From Candidatus Saccharimonadota bacterium (GTDB lineage Bacteria; Patescibacteriota; Saccharimonadia; Saccharimonadales; Saccharimonadaceae), in the NCBI GenBank assembly GCA_049296095.1, contig JBAQRV010000001.1:330001-362000 (forward strand): a stretch of 32,000 nt of DNA, in the 5' to 3' direction. Under the pieces are notes generated by a model. The model was not told the origin of the DNA. It was given only the letters and a program-made list of their open reading frames with translations, and made no database searches. A program made the position numbers and the translations under genes. Below, in pieces: positions 4,986 to 14,723 of the stretch. Each line of letters opens with the position of its first letter. Position 1 is the first letter of the stretch.

Positions 4986-5477
4986 TTATTTACGAGCTTT
5001 GTAATCGTCTGCTCTATTATTAATCGCGTCGTCGCGAGTGGCGACTCGAGCAGGGCGGCGAATATTCTCTTCAATCCACTTTTCTTCATCAGATAATTCT
5101 TTGTGAATAGCAGCGCCTTCAACAGTGAGATCACTGCCGTCATAGTTCGGATCCATAAGTCGGTCATATGGATTGTTATCTTTCGTCTCAGGTGCGGGCT
5201 CATCAACACCAGTATTCTCTAATGCACCGTGGCCAAGCTTTTCTTGTTGAGCTGCATACTGCTCTGCAAGGGCAGCTTGTACCTCAGGACTTAGTCCTCC
5301 ACTTTCGTGCGCTCGACGGGCAGGGCGAGGATCGTCACCATCAGCTTCGGGACGAACAAGTACGCGACCTCTTTCATTAATATCATTCGTAAGGTCCCAC
5401 TGCTCGACTGTGCCCTTATACGCAACAAAGGCTTTTTCTCCAGTGAGTTGGACTTTTTTTGGTTCTGATTCTTGCAT
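4986..5477 (-). CDS. Hypothetical protein (163 aa, highly charged, probably largely disordered)
   Basis: Intact ORF with an ATG start, its own extended -10 box upstream and a terminator downstream. No recognisable domain. Confidence 0.65.
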   Translation of the reverse strand: MQESEPKKVQLTGEKAFVAYKGTVEQWDLTNDINERGRVLVRPEADGDDPRPARRAHESGGLSPEVQAALAEQYAAQQEKLGHGALENTGVDEPAPETKDNNPYDRLMDPNYDGSDLTVEGAAIHKELSDEEKWIEENIRRPARVATRDDAINNRADDYKARK

Positions 5478-5504
5478 ATTTGTTTTGCTCGCTTACTTAA
5501 CTTC

Positions 5505-5513
5505 ACTATAGCA
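5505..5513 (-). promoter_or_regulatory. Extended -10 box TGCTATAGT upstream of the 163-aa gene
   Basis: rc of 5505-5513 reads TGCTATAGT. It lies 27 nt upstream of the ATG at 5477, and the A-rich leader has no SD. Confidence 0.4.
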
Positions 5514-5522
5514 TAAGCTTGA

Positions 5523-5551
5523 CGAAAAAACAACCCCGTGTTACCGGGGTG
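5523..5551 (-). terminator. Intrinsic terminator after the proline-rich protein gene
   Basis: GC-rich 6-bp stem (5533-5538 / 5545-5550) followed on the minus strand by UGUUUUUUCG. It lies 26 nt downstream of the stop at 5577. Confidence 0.6.
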
Positions 5552-5576
5552 CTTTAATAATCGATTTTCTTCAAGA

Positions 5577-6053
5577 CTAGTGGCGAACTTCTCCAGTCCA
5601 ACCGGGGACTTTGCTCGGATCTGCTGGCATTGATGTCTCAATAACCCCCATGCCGAAACGTCCCTTGTCGTCTTCTACTGGTGCGGGAGTTGTTTCAGTA
5701 TTTTGTTGGACTGGTAGTGCTTCTACAGGAGCAGTCTCAGCCACAGGAGGCATACCGATAACATTGGCTGCGGCCGTGGCCTCTGGCGCAGAAGGAGCTG
5801 GAGTAACCTCAGTCCCTGATGGCACCGAGATTTGCTCAGATGCTTGCGTTGGTACTTCCGCTGCAACTGGTGGCTGTACCGTTTCAGGTACAACGATTTG
5901 TTCTGGTGTAGCCGATGCCGATACGTCTGGGTTCAGTTCGGCGACTGGAGGTGCACTAATCTGTTCTGGCAAGGGTGGAACGAGCTCCAATTTGGATGGT
6001 CCAGTCGGAGGCATACCAATCTGTTCTGAATTCGCTGCTGTTTGTCCGTCCAT
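5577..6053 (-). CDS. Proline/glutamate-rich repeat protein (158 aa, low complexity)
   Basis: AGGAGA SD 5 nt upstream of the ATG, an 8-nt gap after the REC gene, and a terminator downstream. Contains repeated (S/P)EQI-x-x-P and IGMPP motifs. No signal peptide or TM helix. Confidence 0.6.
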   Translation of the reverse strand: MDGQTAANSEQIGMPPTGPSKLELVPPLPEQISAPPVAELNPDVSASATPEQIVVPETVQPPVAAEVPTQASEQISVPSGTEVTPAPSAPEATAAANVIGMPPVAETAPVEALPVQQNTETTPAPVEDDKGRFGMGVIETSMPADPSKVPGWTGEVRH

Positions 6054-6525: not shown

Positions 6526-7731
6526 CTAAAGCAAAGCTTTGGCGGCGTCGAGTTGTGGGTCGCGACTCGCGTTAATATCCTCGGGAGTGAGCGGCACTTC
6601 TTTGTTTGGCATGATACCTTTTTCTGAGATATTGACACCATTTGGAGTGTACCACCTGGCGATGGTTACTTTCAGCTCAGCGCTCAGCGGCAAGCTGATG
6701 AGCTTCTGCACGCTTCCCTTACCAAAAGTCTTCTCACCCACCAACTGAGCAACGCCGTAGTCCTGGAGAGCACCAGCGACGATCTCGCTGGCACTGGCGC
6801 TGCTTGCATTGACCAAGACAACCGTCGGTATACCTTCGAGCAATGGATTACTGCCAGTCTTTAGTTCATCGATAACCGTCGAACCTTTTCGTTCACTCAC
6901 GACAACCTTTTTATTCAACCACAGGCCCGCTAATTCTTGAGCTGAGGTAACATAGCCACCGCCATTACCTCTCAGATCAAGTACGACGCCTGTCACCTTG
7001 GCATCCTTAAATTCCTGAGCAACTTCGCGTGCCTGATCACCAGTTTCGCCGTCAAAACGAGTGACGGTCATAATTCCGATACCATTTTCAATCGTAGAAT
7101 AAACACTCGGATTGTTAACTTGGGCGCGAGTAATGGTGAAGTCCTGCGTTGCTGTTCCTCGCAAAACCGTTAACTTTACGGTTGTACCAACCTCACCGCG
7201 GATCTTCGAAACGGTCTCTTCAACATTCCATCCGTCCGTGTTCTCGTCGTTCACCGCGACAATAACATCGTTCACAGTCACACCCGCCTTTTCAGCAGGA
7301 TTACCCCTCACTATTCGGATAACGGTAGGAACATCGTTTCGAAGCCCAACTTCAATACCGACACCGCCGCCAATATTACCCGTCAGACTATTATCAAACT
7401 CGGTCGTTTGCTGGGTATTCATATATACCGTGTACTCGTCACCTAATGCCTCGACAAGCCCCCTATTGGCACCCTCGATCAATGCCGTGTCATCAATAGT
7501 CCCGTCATAGTTAGCCTTGAGTGCCTGGTAGGTTGCTTGAACTGAAGAAAGATCGAGCGTTCCAGTGTATACTTTTGCTCCGAATAACGGCGCGACTGCC
7601 CCAAAGATCTGCGTATTAAAGGTTCCGGCGATATACCCAAGACCAGCAATAAACACAAATGCCACCACCATAATACTCACAGGTATACGGCGCGGCGCTT
7701 GTTGTCGGCGCGACTTTGAATGCTCAGTCAT
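6526..7731 (-). CDS. S41 family C-terminal processing peptidase (Ctp/Prc-like) with PDZ domain
   Basis: N-terminal TM anchor, PDZ domain (RGNPAEKAGVTVNDVIVAVN), and S41 motifs (LDLRGNGGGY, ASASEIVAGALQD, TFGKGSVQ). The start is placed at the ATG at 7731 because GGAGGGAG lies 6 nt upstream. The ORF-track start at 7773 is an upstream extension. Confidence 0.9.
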   Translation of the reverse strand: MTEHSKSRRQQAPRRIPVSIMVVAFVFIAGLGYIAGTFNTQIFGAVAPLFGAKVYTGTLDLSSVQATYQALKANYDGTIDDTALIEGANRGLVEALGDEYTVYMNTQQTTEFDNSLTGNIGGGVGIEVGLRNDVPTVIRIVRGNPAEKAGVTVNDVIVAVNDENTDGWNVEETVSKIRGEVGTTVKLTVLRGTATQDFTITRAQVNNPSVYSTIENGIGIMTVTRFDGETGDQAREVAQEFKDAKVTGVVLDLRGNGGGYVTSAQELAGLWLNKKVVVSERKGSTVIDELKTGSNPLLEGIPTVVLVNASSASASEIVAGALQDYGVAQLVGEKTFGKGSVQKLISLPLSAELKVTIARWYTPNGVNISEKGIMPNKEVPLTPEDINASRDPQLDAAKALL

Positions 7732-7774
7732 GAATGGCTCCCTCCGAAAGAAACTAGTAAAATATGCTCTCATA

Positions 7775-7831: not shown

Positions 7832-9013
7832 TTACTGACCAATGTAGATGTAGTGATCGAATGCATTCTCAGACAAGGTCATCTCGCTGTACATGCCATA
7901 CCCTTGACCGTAATCATAGTTATATTGGCTCACCGTTACCATACCGTTTGCTGCGCCTTCAACCCAAGCAACGTGTCCGTAGCCTTGACCAGCCTTGGCA
8001 GGATCCATCACAGCGATCGAACCAGCACGTGGCGCTCCTTCAACGTACCCAGCATTCTTAGCGTTCTGCGTGAAGTTTACGGCATTACCCCAACTATAGT
8101 AACGGCCAGTCACCTTAGCGATCTTCCAAGCAGCGTAGCTAGCACATTGACGGCAGCCATAGCCGCGTCCATCGCCACCGTTACCGTCGGCACCACCAGT
8201 CGAGAGATATCCCCACATTGGACAGTTAGTACTATTCCAAGGATACGCTGCGAGAGATCCAGCCGCGACAAGTGTGTAGCCCCCGTTGTTGTTATAACGA
8301 GCGTTAATAGCTGCCTGAGTCGCCTTTGCCTCGGCAATTTGCTGAGCACTGCTTGCAATCAAGCCTTGATAGGTCGATTCATCATTTCGAGTTCGACTCA
8401 ATAGCCCTGCCTGTTCGCTTTCCTTGGCAGCCAAGCTATCACGAGCGCTCTTTTGCTCATTCAACACCTTCTCAACAGCAACTTTCTTTTCATCAAGTTC
8501 TAGCTTCAATTGCTTCACTGTTTTAATAGTGCTGCTGAGTTGATCACGAACAGAGTTGCGGTATTCCTGCTTGTTAAGAAAGTCGGTGATGTTATCACTA
8601 CTGGCAAGCATCTCAATTGGAGAGACATTTCCATCAACATACAGGTCAGCAATTGTTGTCCCGAGGCCGTCCTGATTGTCCTTAATCGCCTTCTCTGTCT
8701 CGGTAATTTCAATCACTAACTTATCGTACTGCGTTTGATTCAAGTCAATCTGCGCCTGGAGAGCGTTTTTTTCATTGGTAATTTGAGCGAGGGCATTGGA
8801 AAGTGTCGCTGCTTCAGCGTTCAGACGGTTAGCCTCAGCCTGGTAGCGAGCCATATCAGCCTGCAGAACGGCAATCTTGTCATCATAAGGATCAGCTGAG
8901 GTCGGACGAGCAATATACAGGGCCGCTACAGTAATACCAACGACAATCGCCAAAGCGATTCCCCATTTAACGAAGCGAGAGAGTGAGACTGGTGTGGTGG
9001 CGCGCAGTTTCAT
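7832..9013 (-). CDS. PcsB-like peptidoglycan hydrolase: N-terminal anchor, long coiled coil, C-terminal CHAP domain
   Basis: 393 aa: TM/signal anchor, about 200 aa of heptad-rich coiled coil, then a CHAP domain with catalytic Cys (GCRQCASYAAWK) and His (GHVAWVEG). Confidence 0.85.
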   Translation of the reverse strand: MKLRATTPVSLSRFVKWGIALAIVVGITVAALYIARPTSADPYDDKIAVLQADMARYQAEANRLNAEAATLSNALAQITNEKNALQAQIDLNQTQYDKLVIEITETEKAIKDNQDGLGTTIADLYVDGNVSPIEMLASSDNITDFLNKQEYRNSVRDQLSSTIKTVKQLKLELDEKKVAVEKVLNEQKSARDSLAAKESEQAGLLSRTRNDESTYQGLIASSAQQIAEAKATQAAINARYNNNGGYTLVAAGSLAAYPWNSTNCPMWGYLSTGGADGNGGDGRGYGCRQCASYAAWKIAKVTGRYYSWGNAVNFTQNAKNAGYVEGAPRAGSIAVMDPAKAGQGYGHVAWVEGAANGMVTVSQYNYDYGQGYGMYSEMTLSENAFDHYIYIGQ

Positions 9014-9023
9014 AACTTATTCA

Positions 9024-9032
9024 ACTTTAGCA
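9024..9032 (-). promoter_or_regulatory. Extended -10 box TGCTAAAGT, 10 nt upstream of the PcsB-like ATG
   Basis: rc of 9024-9032 reads TGCTAAAGT. The spacer is tgaataagtt with no SD. Confidence 0.4.
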
Positions 9033-9048
9033 TAACCATGATCAAACG

Positions 9049-10584
9049 TCAATCAGTCGGAATAGCAGATACTTCGACGGGAATATTCGAAGAATTAGAA
9101 GCACCATTCCCCAGCTGACCCCCTGTGCCAAGCCCCCAGCAATATGCTTGCCCACCCGCGATCGCACAAGTTGTATTATTGCCAGCAGACATAGCAGAGA
9201 CAGTTTTCCCGCTTAACACTCCAGCGGTCGATACCGCAACTGGTACATTTGAAGAGGTCCCGGCATTACCTAACTGCCCACTCGATCCACTACCCCAACA
9301 AAAGGCTTGGCCATCTGCAATAGCACACGTGTGACTCGATCCACTAGTGATTGCGGTCACTGTCTTGCCAGAAAGTACGCCAGCTGTCGAAACAGCCACA
9401 TAAGAGGTCGAGGAGGCACTCACACCTTGCCCTAGTTGCCCACTCGTTCCGCTTCCAGCACAATATACTTGGCTATCAGCTATGACACATGTAAATCCGG
9501 TACCTAACGAGATACCCGTTATTGATTTTCCGGCCAAAACCCCCGAGCCTGACACGAGGACCGGGGAGGTTGATGACGATGTACTCCCGACTCCATACTG
9601 ACCCAAGGAATTAGTTCCCCAACAGTATGCTCCACTATCAGCAATGGCACAGGTGTGGTTATTGCCGCCATTAATGGCTGTTACTGTTTTTCCGGCCAAT
9701 GCGCCATCAGCTGTCACTGCAACCGGTATATTCGAGCTTGTCGTGCTACTATTTCCTAACCGACCACCTGTATTACTTCCCCAGCAAAAGGCTTGGCCAT
9801 CTGCAACTGCACAACTGTGAGCGTCGCCAGCACCAACCGCAGTGACTGTTTTTCCTGCCAATACCCCCGATATAGAAACGGCTACAGGAGAATACGAATG
9901 ACTTGAGCTAGCATTACCAAGCCTTCCGTTTGTATTATTTCCCCAGCAAAAGGCTTGGCCATTTGCGACTGCACAAATATGTTCAAGTCCTCTTGAGATG
10001 GCTGAGATTGATTTGCCCGATAATACACCGGTCGTTACCGTAGCGACAGGTATATTAGACGAAGTGGGCGTCCCCCCATTACCGAGTGCGTACGAGGCTC
10101 CCCAACAATAAGCCTTACCTGCAACAACACCACAGGACACAAACTGTGTGCTCGCGATAGCACTCCACACCGTTCCTGTTTCATGCTCACTACAAACCCC
10201 GGCAGTGACAGCTTTGGCACTACTATCAATGTGATATGCCAAAGTATTCAGTCGTGTCGATGTCGCAGATAAGCAATAGCTATTTGTCTCGTTCGTGTAA
10301 GTATATTGGTAGGTCGTACCATCACTCGCCTTAAGGTTGGCTGTGGCTAAATCTACTGGATAGTGTTCACTCCCGCTATCAGTTTTTGCAACCTCAAGCT
10401 GGTTGGCTGCCGAACGCAGATCAGACTGTAGTACTGACTCAGCGGCGCGTTGTTGTATCCCATTAAACGCGACGAGTGATAGCGCAGCTAAGATCCCAAT
10501 AACAACGATAACGATCAAGAGCTCAACAATCGTAAAACCCCTTCGTAAATGTCGATGCGTGTTACCTATTGCCCGTTTCGTCAT
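9049..10584 (-). CDS. Type IV pilin-like protein fused to a seven-repeat RCC1-like beta-propeller
   Basis: Prepilin class III signal (MTKRAIGNTHRHLRRG|FTIVELLIVIVVIGILAALSL, with Glu at +5) and a pilin-like head with a Cys104/Cys131 pair. Seven repeats of about 54 aa follow, each with a C(W/A)G...G(Q/R)LG motif (C160, 213, 267, 321, 375, 429, 482). Confidence 0.88.
   Translation of the reverse strand: MTKRAIGNTHRHLRRGFTIVELLIVIVVIGILAALSLVAFNGIQQRAAESVLQSDLRSAANQLEVAKTDSGSEHYPVDLATANLKASDGTTYQYTYTNETNSYCLSATSTRLNTLAYHIDSSAKAVTAGVCSEHETGTVWSAIASTQFVSCGVVAGKAYCWGASYALGNGGTPTSSNIPVATVTTGVLSGKSISAISRGLEHICAVANGQAFCWGNNTNGRLGNASSSHSYSPVAVSISGVLAGKTVTAVGAGDAHSCAVADGQAFCWGSNTGGRLGNSSTTSSNIPVAVTADGALAGKTVTAINGGNNHTCAIADSGAYCWGTNSLGQYGVGSTSSSTSPVLVSGSGVLAGKSITGISLGTGFTCVIADSQVYCAGSGTSGQLGQGVSASSTSYVAVSTAGVLSGKTVTAITSGSSHTCAIADGQAFCWGSGSSGQLGNAGTSSNVPVAVSTAGVLSGKTVSAMSAGNNTTCAIAGGQAYCWGLGTGGQLGNGASNSSNIPVEVSAIPTD
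9052..10167 (-). repeat. Seven tandem intragenic repeats of about 162 nt (RCC1-like blades)
   Basis: The CWG codons recur every 159-162 nt. An identical 16-nt core, caaaaggcttggccat, occurs at 9299-9314, 9785-9800 and 9947-9962, with offsets of 486 and 162 nt. Confidence 0.8.
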
Positions 10585-10622
10585 GCGATGTCTGACCGTG
10601 TCCTGTACTAGTTCCGTTATGT

Positions 10623-11609
10623 TTATAGCTTGAGGTAGCGACGGGTTGCCATTAATGACGATACAATGCCGATAAATGCCCCGATAAGGATCATTCCAAG
10701 AAGGACGAATCCAGCGTAGTATGTGATGATATCAAGCGTCGGCTGGACCGTAATTCCCTGTTGCGTCAGGCCTGGAGCCGCAAAGTACAAGACAGCATAC
10801 CCCATCGCACTTGCGATCAGGGCAGCAAAGAAGCCATACACGATCGCCTCGACGACGAATGGACCTCGTATAAATGAACGTTCGGCACCAATTAGTTTCA
10901 TCATCTGAATTTCTTCACGGCGATTAAAGATAGCCATGCGGATCGTGTTAAAGATGATCAGCGTCGAAATCAGCACGAAAATCACACTGGCGCCAATCCC
11001 GACTTTCTGAGCAAAATCAATCGCTTGAGCAATTGTCTCGATAGTCGCCTTCTTGGTACCCGCAAATGACGGTGGACGATTTGGGTCGAGCCGTTCTTTT
11101 GCGTATTCATTATCGGTTACAAAGGTTGCCAATTCACTCGTATTATTGATATCGGCCACCTTGATATTTAGTGTCCATGGGAATTTATTCGTTGCTTCTT
11201 TAATAGCGTCTAGGGCATCATTATCTTCCTTGTTCTGTTGAACAAAGCTGTCACGTGCATCCTGTGGCGATATTGTCGTCACACCAATAACTGACGGCAG
11301 ATCGTTGAGATCAGCTGCAACTTTCGTCACCTCTTCATTCGTTGTTTCGGTCTTTAGATAAATCGACATACTAATGTTATCTTGGAGGTTTGTTAGGGTA
11401 TCAACCAAGATATTACGCGCAGATACGCTGGTAAAGACAATAAATAGTGTGATCGTCATGACGGCCGTTGCAGCAATTGTTAGCCAGGCGTTACGGGTGA
11501 AATTATTGATACCGTAGCGACACATGCGCATAAATGTCGTCCATTGGCGGTGGTGACGCTTTTGTTGTGCAAAGGTCTTTGAGTCGAGTTTTTTCTTACT
11601 TTTTGCCAT
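10623..11609 (-). CDS. ftsX: Cell division ABC transporter permease FtsX
   Basis: 328 aa with a basic N-terminus, TM1, a large extracytoplasmic loop and three C-terminal TM helices. TAATG overlap with the ftsE stop. Confidence 0.9.
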   Translation of the reverse strand: MAKSKKKLDSKTFAQQKRHHRQWTTFMRMCRYGINNFTRNAWLTIAATAVMTITLFIVFTSVSARNILVDTLTNLQDNISMSIYLKTETTNEEVTKVAADLNDLPSVIGVTTISPQDARDSFVQQNKEDNDALDAIKEATNKFPWTLNIKVADINNTSELATFVTDNEYAKERLDPNRPPSFAGTKKATIETIAQAIDFAQKVGIGASVIFVLISTLIIFNTIRMAIFNRREEIQMMKLIGAERSFIRGPFVVEAIVYGFFAALIASAMGYAVLYFAAPGLTQQGITVQPTLDIITYYAGFVLLGMILIGAFIGIVSSLMATRRYLKL

Positions 11610-12292
11610 TATTGTCGATAACTTCCTTCAGCTTGGTCGCCGGTAATTTTACCGCCTTCGATCGTGATCACCCGTCGCTTCAATTTATTAACAATTTCAG
11701 CGTTGTGAGTTGTGAGCAGAACGGTAGTGCCGTATTTATTGATCTTTTCAAGCAGTCGAACGATGTCCCAGCTGTGTTTTGGATCGAGGTTTCCGGTTGG
11801 CTCATCAGCAATGAGGATCTTTGGTTGTCGAACAACTGCACGCGCAATCGCTACCCGTTGTCGCTCTCCGCCAGAGAGCTGGTGTGGGAATTGCTTTTCC
11901 TTACCGGTCAATCCAACCAGGTCGATAACCTTTGGAACTGTATTTTTGATTTCTCGGCCAGTCATACCGGCAATCTCGAGAGCAAAGGCAATATTTTCAA
12001 AGACGGTGCGTTGCGGCAAGAGTTTGAAATCTTGAAAGACCACACCAATTTTACGGCGAAGCATCGGGATCTGAGAATCCTTCAAAGTATCATAGTCAAT
12101 CCCACCGACAACAATCTTGCCACTGGTCGGTTTTTCTTCACGAGTTAAGAGTTTGAGAAGGGTTGATTTTCCGGCACCACTGGCACCAACAATAATCACG
12201 AATTCACGTGGCTCAATAAAGACACTCAGACGGCTGAGTGCTGGTGTACTATCTTTACCGTACGTTTTTGTTACCCTATCTAACAGAATCAT
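11609..12292 (-). CDS. ftsE: Cell division ATP-binding protein FtsE
   Basis: 227 aa with Walker A (GASGAGKST), ABC signature (LSGGERQR) and Walker B (ILIADEPT). Paired with ftsX. Confidence 0.92.
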   Translation of the reverse strand: MILLDRVTKTYGKDSTPALSRLSVFIEPREFVIIVGASGAGKSTLLKLLTREEKPTSGKIVVGGIDYDTLKDSQIPMLRRKIGVVFQDFKLLPQRTVFENIAFALEIAGMTGREIKNTVPKVIDLVGLTGKEKQFPHQLSGGERQRVAIARAVVRQPKILIADEPTGNLDPKHSWDIVRLLEKINKYGTTVLLTTHNAEIVNKLKRRVITIEGGKITGDQAEGSYRQ

Positions 12293-12334: not shown

Positions 12335-13417
12335 CTAGGACTTCTCTGGCGCTTCCAAAAATGCCTCCATAAACCCATCGAGATCACCATCCAAAACACC
12401 TTGAGCATTATTCGTCTCATGCTTCGTCCGTGCATCCTTCACTAAAGTGTACGGATGGAGGACGTAGTTTCGGATCTGACTTCCCCAGTTGGCTGACTCG
12501 CCTGCTTGTAGTTCGGTAATCGAACTGACGTGTTGTTCCATTTGAAGTTGCGCGAGTTTTGAGCGCAATAATTTCATGGCAGTTTCTTTATTCTGCAGCT
12601 GCGAGCGTTCATTCTGAATCGCCACGACAATGCCGGTCGGAATATGAGTAATGCGAACCGCGCTATCGGTCGTATTGACTGATTGACCACCATGGCCGCC
12701 AGCGCGGTACACATCAATCTTGAGATCTTTGTCGTCAATCTTCAGTTCATCCGGCGCATCAATCTGCGGTAGCACCTCCACTAGTGCGAAACTGGTTTGA
12801 CGAAGATTATCACTGTTGTACGGACTGAGACGAACGAGACGATGTACACCATGCTCACTTCTCAATTTGCCGTAGGCAAAACCACCGATAATCTCAATCA
12901 CACTCGACTTTATACCTGCCTCCTCACCCTGTGATCGCTCAATCACTGTCGCAGACATTCCTGACCGCTCAGCCCAACGAAGATACATCCGTTCAAGCAT
13001 TTCTGTCCAATCCTGGGCATCAGTTCCACCAGCTCCAGCACTTAAACGAAGAATCGCATTATGGTCATCAAACTCACCATCAAATAATAGGTCTTTACGA
13101 AGTCGTTGGAACTCTTTTTCCAGTGCAATAATCTGACCTTCGAATTCACCGAGCAAGCTATCATCATCGAGATCCATCAGTTCAGTCATATCGCTCACTT
13201 GAGCCCGTAGGGTGAGCCAAGGATCGACGACGTTCTTTAGAGCCGCTAGTTGTTTACTTTTTGCCTGAGCAACGGAAGGATTATTCCAAATTTCAGATGT
13301 GGCCATTACCTGCTCGAGTGCATCAATCTCGGCCTGTTTATCGGTAATATGGAGTCGTTCTAGGGCTGCTTCAACTTCAGGACGCAGCTCATTCAGTCGT
13401 TTTATCAGGGGTTGCAT
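12335..13417 (-). CDS. prfB: Peptide chain release factor 2
   Basis: GGQ motif (GGHGGQSVN), an RF2-type recognition loop (LSPYNSDNLRQTSF), and collinearity with E. coli RF2. The frame is continuous with no +1 frameshift site. The start is placed at the ATG at 13417 (MQPLIKRL), which removes the overlap with murD. Confidence 0.93.
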   Translation of the reverse strand: MQPLIKRLNELRPEVEAALERLHITDKQAEIDALEQVMATSEIWNNPSVAQAKSKQLAALKNVVDPWLTLRAQVSDMTELMDLDDDSLLGEFEGQIIALEKEFQRLRKDLLFDGEFDDHNAILRLSAGAGGTDAQDWTEMLERMYLRWAERSGMSATVIERSQGEEAGIKSSVIEIIGGFAYGKLRSEHGVHRLVRLSPYNSDNLRQTSFALVEVLPQIDAPDELKIDDKDLKIDVYRAGGHGGQSVNTTDSAVRITHIPTGIVVAIQNERSQLQNKETAMKLLRSKLAQLQMEQHVSSITELQAGESANWGSQIRNYVLHPYTLVKDARTKHETNNAQGVLDGDLDGFMEAFLEAPEKS

Positions 13418-13424
13418 AGTCTCT

Positions 13425-13430
13425 ACTATA
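13425..13430 (-). promoter_or_regulatory. -10 box TATAGT, 7 nt upstream of the prfB ATG (leaderless-type)
   Basis: rc of 13425-13430 reads TATAGT. The spacer is agagact, followed by the ATG at 13417. Confidence 0.35.
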
Positions 13431-13442
13431 CAGGAAAGTGCC

Positions 13443-14723
13443 TTATAGTGCGTTGACCGCGGCGATAAACTGCTCACCTCGATCGACATAATTCTTGAAC
13501 ATACCAAAACTTGCCGCCGCTGGACTCAGCAGTACTGCTGCGCCAGGCTGCGCCAGCTCGTGGGCTCGACGCACGAACGCCTCTGCTCCCCCGTCAATGG
13601 TCTCAAAATCTTCGAATTCTACCGCTCGAAGTGCTTCAGCAATACGCGGCGCTTCATCTCCCACCAAGATAGCCTGCACATCATGCAGCTTCATCTCTCT
13701 CGCTAATTCACTGAAATCGGATCCTTTTGATGAACCGCCTAGAATAATTATTTTAGGGCGATCAAAAGCTCGCAGTGCAGCGATTGCCGAACCTGGTGTA
13801 GTTGCGATGCTGTCATCATAGTAATCAACACCATCTACAGTCCGAACAAAAGACAATCGATGTGCCAAGCCTTTAAAATTAGTAAGCCCTGTCTCAATAA
13901 CCTGTGGGTCTTTCGTATACTGCCAGATCGCGTCAATCGCTGCTGTAGCATTATCAACGTTATGCGCACCAGCAATCTTTAAAGCATCAACTGAACACAA
14001 TTCTTGTTCATTATAGAAAAACTTTCCCTCAAAAACATGTGCGCTATTCTGCCCCGGATAGGCGACTTTCTTTGCTGATGACAGATCAGCGATCTGCCGT
14101 GAATACTCGTTGTGGGCATTAAATATGAGTAGGTCGTCAGGAGATTGAAAGCGTGCAATATTGCCTTTCGCCTCGATATACTCCGACATATCTGCATGGA
14201 CATCGAGGTGCTCTTGTTCAATAAAGAGCACAACCGCTGTCTTCGGCGAACGCTCAATATCCCATAGTTGAAAACTCGAAAGTTCATATACTACGATGTC
14301 ATTCGGTTGAATCTCGCCAAGGATATCCAGTGACGGTTGTCCAATATTCCCGACCAACCACACCTTTCGCCCATCCGCCTCTAGTATTGAGCTAATCAAA
14401 CTTGAGGTTGTCCCCTTACCCTTAGAGCCAGTGACACCGATAATATCAGCTGGGCATTTTGCAAAGAATTCATTCGTCGCCGACCAAATCTTTCCATCCG
14501 TCGTGATCTTGTGCGGAGCAAGCCCGGCGGTACGAATCACCAGATCGAACCCATTCAGCTGCTCAAATGCATCCGGTGCCAATAGTGTTGGCACTCCCTC
14601 TGGAAGGGGTCGATCTGGAATATCTTTCTGATCAACAATCGTTATCTGATTGTCAGGATCTTGCGACCAGTAGGCATAGTTGGCCTCACCCTCAACCCCG
14701 TACCCAGCAATCGCAATCTTCAT
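13443..14723 (-). CDS. murD: UDP-N-acetylmuramoylalanine--D-glutamate ligase
   Basis: 426 aa with an N-terminal Rossmann-like segment (KIAIAGYGVEG) and the Mur ligase P-loop (GVTGSKGKGTT), collinear with MurD. It is not located within a dcw cluster here. Confidence 0.9.
   Translation of the reverse strand: MKIAIAGYGVEGEANYAYWSQDPDNQITIVDQKDIPDRPLPEGVPTLLAPDAFEQLNGFDLVIRTAGLAPHKITTDGKIWSATNEFFAKCPADIIGVTGSKGKGTTSSLISSILEADGRKVWLVGNIGQPSLDILGEIQPNDIVVYELSSFQLWDIERSPKTAVVLFIEQEHLDVHADMSEYIEAKGNIARFQSPDDLLIFNAHNEYSRQIADLSSAKKVAYPGQNSAHVFEGKFFYNEQELCSVDALKIAGAHNVDNATAAIDAIWQYTKDPQVIETGLTNFKGLAHRLSFVRTVDGVDYYDDSIATTPGSAIAALRAFDRPKIIILGGSSKGSDFSELAREMKLHDVQAILVGDEAPRIAEALRAVEFEDFETIDGGAEAFVRRAHELAQPGAAVLLSPAAASFGMFKNYVDRGEQFIAAVNAL

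Follow-up and report, generated by a model that had tools for sequence, protein, structure and literature searches.

Host recognition by the ultrasmall epibionts of the Candidate Phyla Radiation (CPR) is poorly understood; among their attachment organelles, only type IV pili have genetic support. Almost all Saccharibacteria are reported to have type IV pili (PMC11623550), and in Nanosynbacter lyticus TM7x, whose pili are about 3 nm wide or less, the thin pilus T4P-2 contains a minor pilin, PilX2, that carries a seven-blade RCC1 propeller (Grossman et al., bioRxiv 2024 / ISME J 2025; PMC11623550, PMC12206443). Deletion of pilX2 lowered the proportion of bound hosts from 10.6% to 4.6% and led to a loss of competitive fitness, with thin pili still being made, and the authors propose that the protein binds glycans (PMC11623550). 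Raynaud et al. 2021 (PMC8179133) had earlier defined modular pilins, listing 264 architectures, many of them from CPR phyla, and their Dataset S1 holds combinations of N_methyl with RCC1 (IPR012902 with IPR000408 or PF13540). An earlier note on the DNA studied here, made from its letters alone, was not aware of a characterised pilin-RCC1 fusion; PilX2 is one, and the architecture itself was already on the 2021 list. Here we describe a second, distinct RCC1-bearing pilin type in Saccharibacteria, as judged from its sequence, encoded in a 32-kb stretch of a Candidatus Saccharimonadota genome (contig JBAQRV010000001.1, positions 330,001 to 362,000; hereafter the window, to which coordinates refer unless another locus is named). 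It adds an uncharacterised protein to the known class of modular type IV pilins. In this protein a canonical pilin module with Glu5 carries a 40-kDa RCC1-type propeller on an 8-residue linker, and the whole is probably displayed on a pilus as an adhesin.

The gene is a single open reading frame (ORF) with an ATG start that fills positions 9049-10584 on the minus strand, a strand that the earlier note had not given although its length of 511 amino acids (aa) was right. An identical protein from a metagenome-assembled genome (MAG) is deposited at NCBI as MFZ2126274.1, where its only annotation is 'prepilin-type N-terminal cleavage/methylation domain-containing protein'. The adjoining CHAP protein has Candidatus Microsaccharimonas sp. 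(family Saccharimonadaceae, phylum Saccharimonadota) as its NCBI source, in agreement with the previous guess of a CPR organism. The parts of the gene are as follows.

9049..10584, minus strand: whole gene, 511 aa plus stop, for a modular type IV pilin that ends in an RCC1-like propeller (ORF listing; Pfam N_methyl, RCC1, RCC1_2 and WD40_RLD)
10537..10584, minus strand: leader peptide, residues 1-16 (MTKRAIGNTHRHLRRG), basic, Gly at -1 (read from the sequence)
10378..10536, minus strand: mature N-terminus F17 and alpha-1 helix, residues 17-69, Glu5 = E21, hydrophobic alpha-1N (N_methyl, TIGR02532, model helix)
10192..10377, minus strand: pilin head, residues 70-131, four-stranded sheet with a Cys104/Cys131 pair, D-region-like (model strands, Cys positions)
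10168..10191, minus strand: linker from head to propeller, residues 132-139 (SEHETGTV), 8 residues, without secondary structure between strands 126-128 and 140-145
9070..10167, minus strand: seven-blade RCC1-like beta-propeller, residues 140-505 (Pfam, AlphaFold2, Foldseek, phmmer)

The N-terminus of the protein, MTKRAIGNTHRHLRRG|FTIVELLIVIVVIGILAA, has the features of a class III signal, namely a short basic leader running to Gly16, Phe17 at +1, Glu21 at +5 and a hydrophobic stretch of about 20 residues, with RRG|FTIVELLIVIVVIGILAA as the cleavage context. It was matched by Pfam N_methyl at 27.5 bits (cut-off 21.2) and by NCBIfam TIGR02532 at 26.7 (cut-off 16.3), and the remaining NCBIfam matches (GspG, GspH, PilA and ComG) were confined to residues 13-78 and all fell under their cut-offs. 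In a sequence search of the PDB, Geobacter PilA aligned with residues 13-70 and Thermus PilA4 and PilA5 with residues 17-109. An AlphaFold2 model, generated from an alignment of 28 full-length homologues, had a mean predicted local distance difference test score (pLDDT) of 89.4 and a predicted template modelling score (pTM) of 0.75. The pilin part of the model adopts the 'lollipop' fold, with a helix at residues 19-69 and four head strands at 90-97, 102-109, 116-120 and 126-128 (pLDDT 75-93 there), and the sole disordered stretch is residues 1-13 of the leader, at pLDDT <50. The prepilin signal, the long alpha-1 helix and the globular head with Cys104 and Cys131 that had been proposed from the letters are thus all present. 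Across 135 proteins with the same N-domain, described below, Glu5 is invariant, G, F, T, I, V and L are each at least 90% conserved, and the same holds for the columns of Cys104 and Cys131 ('YC' and 'GxC'). Among homologues conservation is highest in alpha-1N, with a mean column entropy of 0.92 bits versus 1.5-2.1 elsewhere, and the leader and linker are variable, at 2.85 and 2.35 bits, respectively. The invariance of Glu5, together with the position of alpha-1N as the most conserved segment, argues for selection for pilin function and filament assembly, unlike what simple anchoring would require. A six-frame motif scan of the window found no prepilin motif other than that of this gene.

C-terminal to the linker lie seven repeats with a period of 53-54 aa, the blades falling at about residues 140-181, 193-235, 247-289, 301-343, 355-397, 409-450 and 462-504. 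Pfam matched RCC1 at 2.6e-49 (166 bits, cut-off 21.7; six stretches), RCC1_2 at 5.5e-24 (83.7 bits, cut-off 22; four stretches) and WD40_RLD at 2.9e-59 (201.7 bits, cut-off 150; residues 155-468), so that seven repeats covered by PF00415, PF13540 and PF25390 above the Pfam cut-offs identify an RCC1-like domain (RLD). As sequence-profile matches, the scores of both the pilin and the propeller domains are far outside chance. Seven repeats bearing C(W/A)G and G(Q/R)LG had been claimed for this region; the repeats and the first motif hold, with CWG in all blades but blade 5, which has CAG, while G(Q/R)LG is exact in five of the seven only, blade 1 having ALG and blade 4 GQYG. In the AlphaFold2 model 28 strands lie between residues 140 and 504, four for each of seven blades, and a closed seven-blade propeller on a pilin N-domain is thereby confidently predicted. 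Two of the computational checks suggested in the earlier note, profile searches with the RCC1 and N-terminal methylation families and structure prediction, thus came out in its favour. When the model was compared with the PDB by Foldseek, UVR8 ranked first (E 9.5e-34, target-normalised TM 0.86-0.91, root-mean-square deviation (rmsd) 1.8-2.3 A over about 378 columns), followed by RPGR, the RLDs of HERC1 and HERC2, and RCC1; phmmer against the PDB likewise found UVR8, at 1e-37.

The 16 cysteines of the protein comprise the head pair 104/131 and one C-x8-C pair in every blade (151/160, 204/213, 258/267, 312/321, 366/375, 420/429 and 473/482), spaced 53-54 residues apart, the second Cys of each opening the C(W/A)G motif. 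In the model the two members of a blade pair sit on adjacent antiparallel strands, for example C151 in 149-154 and C160 in 157-162, and from this placement disulfides that staple each blade are a plausible prediction. As all 16 residues could pair in this way, one pair in the head and one in each blade, their arrangement fits an extracytoplasmic protein. The blade pair is conserved in pilin-fused homologues and sets the protein apart from those of the UVR8/RPGR/RCC1 type; UVR8, the HERC2 RLD, RPGR, RCC1 and BLIP-II share its seven-blade fold and repeat signature but lack a pilin module and are soluble, in the cytosol, in the nucleus or as secreted proteins. Gly, Ala, Ser and Thr together account for 50.7% of residues, above the 36-39% of the most exposed TM7x pilins (PMC11623550, PMC12206443), which we count in favour of an exposed pilin or adhesin. 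Conservation among homologues places the variable positions of the propeller in three loops per blade, at blade phases -4/-3, 12-15 and 21-27.

When blades were matched one by one with those of other proteins, the best match lay at the same blade position in 43 of 140 cases, and identity was 0.50 for the same versus 0.45 for other positions; at the sequence level the blades are consensus-like and without a signal of history, and recent blade duplication is not inferable. No DNA-level tandem repeats occur inside the gene, the blades having diverged at that level too. Acquisition of the propeller from actinobacterial hosts was considered and set aside, as non-pilin matches lie in the same identity range as pilin-fused paralogues and no direction of transfer follows from them; where an organism is named, the best non-pilin matches come for the most part from Actinobacteria (40-49% identity), and one comes from Bacteroidia (39%). 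A foreign origin by composition was likewise rejected, the gene having a GC content of 0.50 versus 0.44-0.51 in its surroundings. An Rfam scan of the whole window returned no matches.

To compare the protein with PilX2 directly, a PilX2 orthologue was located by the published pilX2 deletion primer, whose exact 32-nt pattern matched three Saccharibacteria MAGs. This revealed a protein of 583 aa with seven RCC1 repeats (L007 711-2462), followed directly by a 141-aa canonical pilin orthologous to PilA2, the thin-pilus major pilin; the gene order at loci L009 and L007 is three N_methyl minor pilins, pilX2 and pilA2. PilX2 shares with the window protein the seven-blade RCC1 propeller, the C-x8-C pair in each blade and the proposed role as a host-binding type IV pilus adhesin. 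The two differ at the N-terminus, which in the PilX2 orthologue reads ...KKDG|YSLVLIVL, lacks Glu5 and gives no N_methyl match, whereas the window protein has the canonical Glu5 motif; judged by alignment and gene order, the PilX2 chassis is non-canonical and placed like GspK/PilX, and that of the window protein is canonical. Alignment of the two proteins is confined to the propellers, residues 140-504 against 158-570 at 30% identity (E 4e-44). No alignment of the alpha-1 helices or pilin heads was obtained, and the one high-scoring segment pair beginning at residue 127 is a gapped, spurious extension. The N-domain of the window protein instead matches the PilA2 orthologue, at 44% identity over 90 aa (E 2e-11).

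In the window protein a short linker joins an N-terminal pilin module to a domain that is not pilus-specific, which places it under the definition of a modular pilin given by Raynaud et al. The earlier note had drawn its comparison with CofB and TcpB, which are also large tip-located minor pilins with extra C-terminal domains. This comparison is loose, since those domains are beta-repeat or beta-sandwich folds in trimers of type IVb systems (PMC8179133) and neither protein is among the listed sequence or fold matches in the PDB. Closer in design are Streptococcus sanguinis PilB, with a von Willebrand factor A (vWA) module, and PilC, with a ConA-like lectin, in both of which a small canonical pilin module bears a bulky module on a short linker (PMC8179133, PMC9934059). 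S. sanguinis, like the window organism, has a single membrane, and adhesion is proven for PilB, which was modelled as compatible only with the pilus tip and which, in a model of the filament body, clashes with its neighbours (PMC8179133). The grafted modules and the phylum are different, however, and the S. sanguinis genes lie in a pil locus, in contrast to the orphan gene described here. RCC1 on a canonical pilin module is known from sequence. The PilY1/PilC tip adhesins of diderm type IVa pili likewise mediate adhesion through a beta-propeller at the pilus tip. PilY1 is not itself a pilin, though, and its propeller belongs to another family (IPR008707); the Pfam scan of the window protein found only RCC1-type families, N_methyl and a sub-threshold ABC2_membrane_3 match, and the TM7x authors report that PilY1 resembles PilX2 only remotely in structure (rmsd 5.0; PMC11623550).

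Full-length fusions of pilin and RCC1 make up about a quarter of the best 120 whole-protein matches (500-575 aa, 40-55% identity, query coverage 93-100%), the other three quarters or so being RCC1 proteins without a pilin module. Some of the fusions with an organism name belong to Microsaccharimonas. Most have seven blades and three have eight; two pilin-fused proteins of about 885 aa were also seen, P0005 (890 aa) and P0025 (883 aa), and Pfam assigns 12-14 RCC1 repeats to the latter, a number that would suffice for two propellers on this type of pilin module. P0048 and P0056 come from a single genome, which has two or more copies. In addition, a 578-kb Saccharibacteria-like contig carries tandem pilin-RCC1 paralogues of 513 and 517 aa after smpB (L006 10001-11542 and 11711-13264), whose upstream sequences are almost identical (..GCTAGTGCTAAG..TTAAT ATG). 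RCC1 propellers occur on recognisable PilX-type N-domains as well, as in P0097 (745 aa), which combines PilX_N (PF14341) with RCC1 repeats.

To define the chassis itself, residues 1-139 were searched exhaustively against 1.84 billion representative proteins. This yielded 2,967 matches at E<=1e-10, and the best 150 all carry the whole head domain at their own N-terminus in proteins of 120 to 528 aa. Pfam was run on 135 of these 150, of which 132 matched N_methyl, and their C-terminal parts fell into 57 Pfam families, of which the most frequent are the following.

Laminin_G_3 (ConA-like lectin): 21/135
RCC1: 13/135
NHL: 11/135
Sortilin/BNR: 9/135
CBM_4_9: 8/135
SBBP: 7/135
Fib_succ_major: 6/135
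LRR_5: 5/135

By these domain assignments the window protein is one architecture among many on a common pilin chassis. The single gene is confirmatory and not surprising; what deserves attention is the wider pattern of a common chassis and swappable modules in the form of orphan cassettes. The same contig carries another orphan modular pilin about 14 kb away, past the left edge of the window (L011 16396-17721, plus strand; 441 aa, GFSIVELI). It matches N_methyl with 31.4 bits and, at its C-terminus, an FGE-sulfatase-type domain with 33.8 bits (cut-off 23.3), and the head is unlike that of the window protein (28% identity).

We next consider the surroundings of the gene. Its neighbours are housekeeping genes. 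On one strand the order is secA, M16 peptidase, Mur ligase, prfB, ftsE, ftsX, pilin-RCC1, CHAP, ctpA and response regulator, and the genes and junctions nearest to the pilin gene are as follows.

11609-12292, same strand as pilin-RCC1: ftsE
10623-11609, same strand as pilin-RCC1: ftsX
10585..10622, minus strand: 38-bp spacer from the ftsX stop to the pilin ATG, the upstream insertion junction, without a promoter-like box
9014..9052, minus strand: downstream junction, in which the pilin stop TGA overlaps the -35 TTGACG of the promoter-like site of the CHAP gene
7832-9013, same strand as pilin-RCC1: gene for a PcsB-like coiled-coil and CHAP hydrolase
6526-7773, same strand as pilin-RCC1: ctpA

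The arrangement resembles the FtsEX-PcsB division hydrolase system of streptococci, and the cluster ftsE-ftsX-(PcsB-like CHAP)-ctpA (window 7832-12292 plus ctpA) is kept in Saccharimonadaceae relatives, the CHAP protein being 62-85% identical among the 119 relatives listed. In three relatives with CHAP proteins 70-74% identical (L013-L015) the whole neighbourhood is kept with no gene between ftsX and CHAP; their spacer is 41 bp long and has a TTGAC(T/G)-N17-TGCTAA.. box right after the ftsX stop and ahead of the CHAP start codon. In the window this box is intact, as TTGACG-N17-TAAAGT with an upstream TG at 9052..9024, and the pilin ORF with the 38 bp upstream of it fits exactly between the ftsX stop and the box. 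By comparison with these relatives, the pilin-RCC1 gene is a lineage-specific insertion that separates ftsX from the CHAP gene. Scanning for promoters and terminators gave results at chance level overall, and the CHAP site is the sole one supported, by its conservation in relatives.

Context was also read for five further family members, and the housekeeping genes around them are unrelated from one to the next, as given here by locus.

L002: P0048, upstream of leuS
L003: P0056, after a KsgA-type methyltransferase (RrnaAD) gene
L004: P0070, after rpsJ, within a ribosomal protein cluster
L005: P0116, adjoining a helix-turn-helix (HTH) gene
L006: P0018, after smpB, in tandem with the second paralogue

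All six family members with context read, the window gene included, are orphans far from pilus genes, and a stand-alone pilin relative, P0182, is likewise an orphan. A -10-like box (often TGCTAA.AT) 7-12 nt before an ATG, with no Shine-Dalgarno sequence between, was seen at window 9024-9052 and at L003, L005, L006 and L011, which suggests that transcripts in this lineage may be leaderless or near-leaderless.

We favour a reading in which, following export, a PilD-type prepilin peptidase would cut after Gly16 and methylate Phe17, alpha-1N would keep the protein in the membrane, and the type IV pilus machinery would feed it into a filament through the invariant Glu5. It would be placed at the tip or incorporated rarely and sparsely, because a propeller of about 365 residues, tethered by 8 residues, cannot be packed in the manner of a head of about 60. 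There the propeller would bind a ligand on the surface of the host bacterium, probably a cell-wall glycopolymer, attaching the epibiont, and retraction of the pilus would pull it towards the host. An adhesin is the best-supported reading of function, though only by analogy with the systems described above. That the ligand is a glycan is suggested only by analogy as well, from the lectin-like modules on the chassis, the proposal of the TM7x authors, the range of modules in Streptomyces UmbA, in which propellers of 5, 6 and 7 blades, laminin_G_3 and CBM_4_9 read the variable teichuronic and teichoic acids of Actinobacteria, and the RCC1-like propellers among phage tail-fibre proteins. Several points weigh against this reading. 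The tip, although the most likely location, is deduced from bulk and linker length, and nothing in the sequence of the protein identifies its ligand. On the alignments the window protein is an analogue of PilX2 and not an orthologue, sharing the type of propeller on a different chassis, so that the PilX2 phenotype, itself partial, transfers only by analogy. Whereas pilX2 sits in a minor-pilin operon beside pilA2, the window gene is an orphan between ftsX and the CHAP gene, and a Pfam search of 30 neighbouring ORFs and of 10 kb beyond each window edge (about 52 kb in total) found no PilB, PilC, PilD, PilM or PilT and no other pilin of the same chassis. Nor has the gene a recognisable promoter of its own, the 38-bp spacer containing no -10-like box; as other family members have such a box 7-12 nt before the ATG, the window copy probably relies on read-through from ftsEX.

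The orphan state of all six genes and the lack of pilus machinery within about 52 kb would also suit a receptor that is never polymerised, in which the class III signal serves for export and as an anchor or short stalk and the propeller stands at the cell surface, comparable to the archaeal sugar-binding proteins with class III signals. Since the invariant Glu5 and the conservation of alpha-1N are what filament assembly would be expected to impose, and the head retains the full pilin fold with its disulfide pair, we regard such a receptor as unlikely, though it is the strongest of the alternatives. Slightly less probable again is display on a pilus with a target other than a host, be it an abiotic surface or biofilm matrix, other Saccharibacteria, a eukaryotic surface or a phage for which the module acts as decoy. 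The sequence leaves room for these, as it does not name the ligand, and RCC1-like propellers bind proteins and other ligands (RCC1-Ran, BLIP-II with beta-lactamase, UVR8-COP1); the one RCC1-bearing pilin studied genetically nevertheless points to host binding and to competition on the host (PMC11623550), and the modules of the chassis are mostly lectin-like. The N-domain, which is of the major-pilin type (Glu5, 44% identity to the PilA2 orthologue) and not GspK/PilX-like, raises the further idea that the protein co-polymerises along the filament or forms one of its own, giving a propeller-coated pilus with many binding sites. Raynaud et al. allow a body location where the linker is flexible (PMC8179133); set against this are the 8 residues that join so large a propeller to the head, the clashes of PilB in the filament-body model (PMC8179133) and the width of TM7x pili (PMC11623550), and we think a body subunit improbable. 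Least credible, at a very low probability, is a cell-division or cell-wall factor that acts with FtsEX and the PcsB-like CHAP hydrolase. It is prompted by the co-stranded order ftsE-ftsX-pilin-CHAP-ctpA and by the lack of terminator-like sites in the two short gaps flanking the pilin gene (38 bp on the ftsX side and 35 bp on the CHAP side), but the three relatives that lack the gene and the five family members in unrelated contexts indicate that the association is accidental, and a functional linkage to FtsEX or the PcsB-like protein is largely refuted by synteny.

Returning to the pilus-displayed adhesin, a broader proposal, which we put forward tentatively as a possibility that is more doubtful than the adhesin itself, is that in Saccharibacteria a single conserved pilin module serves as plug-in carrier for a large set of interchangeable lectin and propeller modules, with orphan cassettes landing in housekeeping operons and the repertoire setting which hosts can be attached. 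A genome can have several cassettes; in the window the site is bounded exactly by the ftsX stop codon and the -35 hexamer of the gene that follows, and elsewhere cassettes lie after rpsJ, smpB or ksgA. Under this proposal phage receptor-binding proteins and the diversified UmbA lectins of Streptomyces umbrella toxins would be parallels of the chassis repertoire. If the modules are host-recognition elements, host range would be predictable from the module repertoire in metagenomes, and single modules, such as residues 140-511 of the window protein, could be produced alone and assayed against the cell walls of hosts.

Further observations were made in and around the window. Between the response regulator and rpmA (L27) lies a variable stretch: at window 4986-6053 it holds a 158-aa ORF rich in Pro, Ala, Glu and Thr and a 163-aa ORF (5577-6053 and 4986-5477), neither with Pfam matches, and in the relatives it holds ORFs of unrelated length, of 267, 130+306 and 492 aa (L013 8958-9761, L014 8956-10280 and L015 8973-10451, respectively). 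The mechanical ORF of prfB (RF2; window 12335-13507) has a TTG start, is 390 aa long and overlaps the Mur ligase gene, and the deposited call is 360 aa (L001 7168-8250). In the same genome, about 17 kb from the pilin gene, a KwaB-family gene (PF16162, of the Kiwa anti-phage system) adjoins a PIF1-type helicase gene (L011 19024-21092). Finally, a related Microsaccharimonas MAG encodes a 1061-aa UvrD-type helicase with a weak match to an intein-splicing domain (PF14890; L003 4723-7908).

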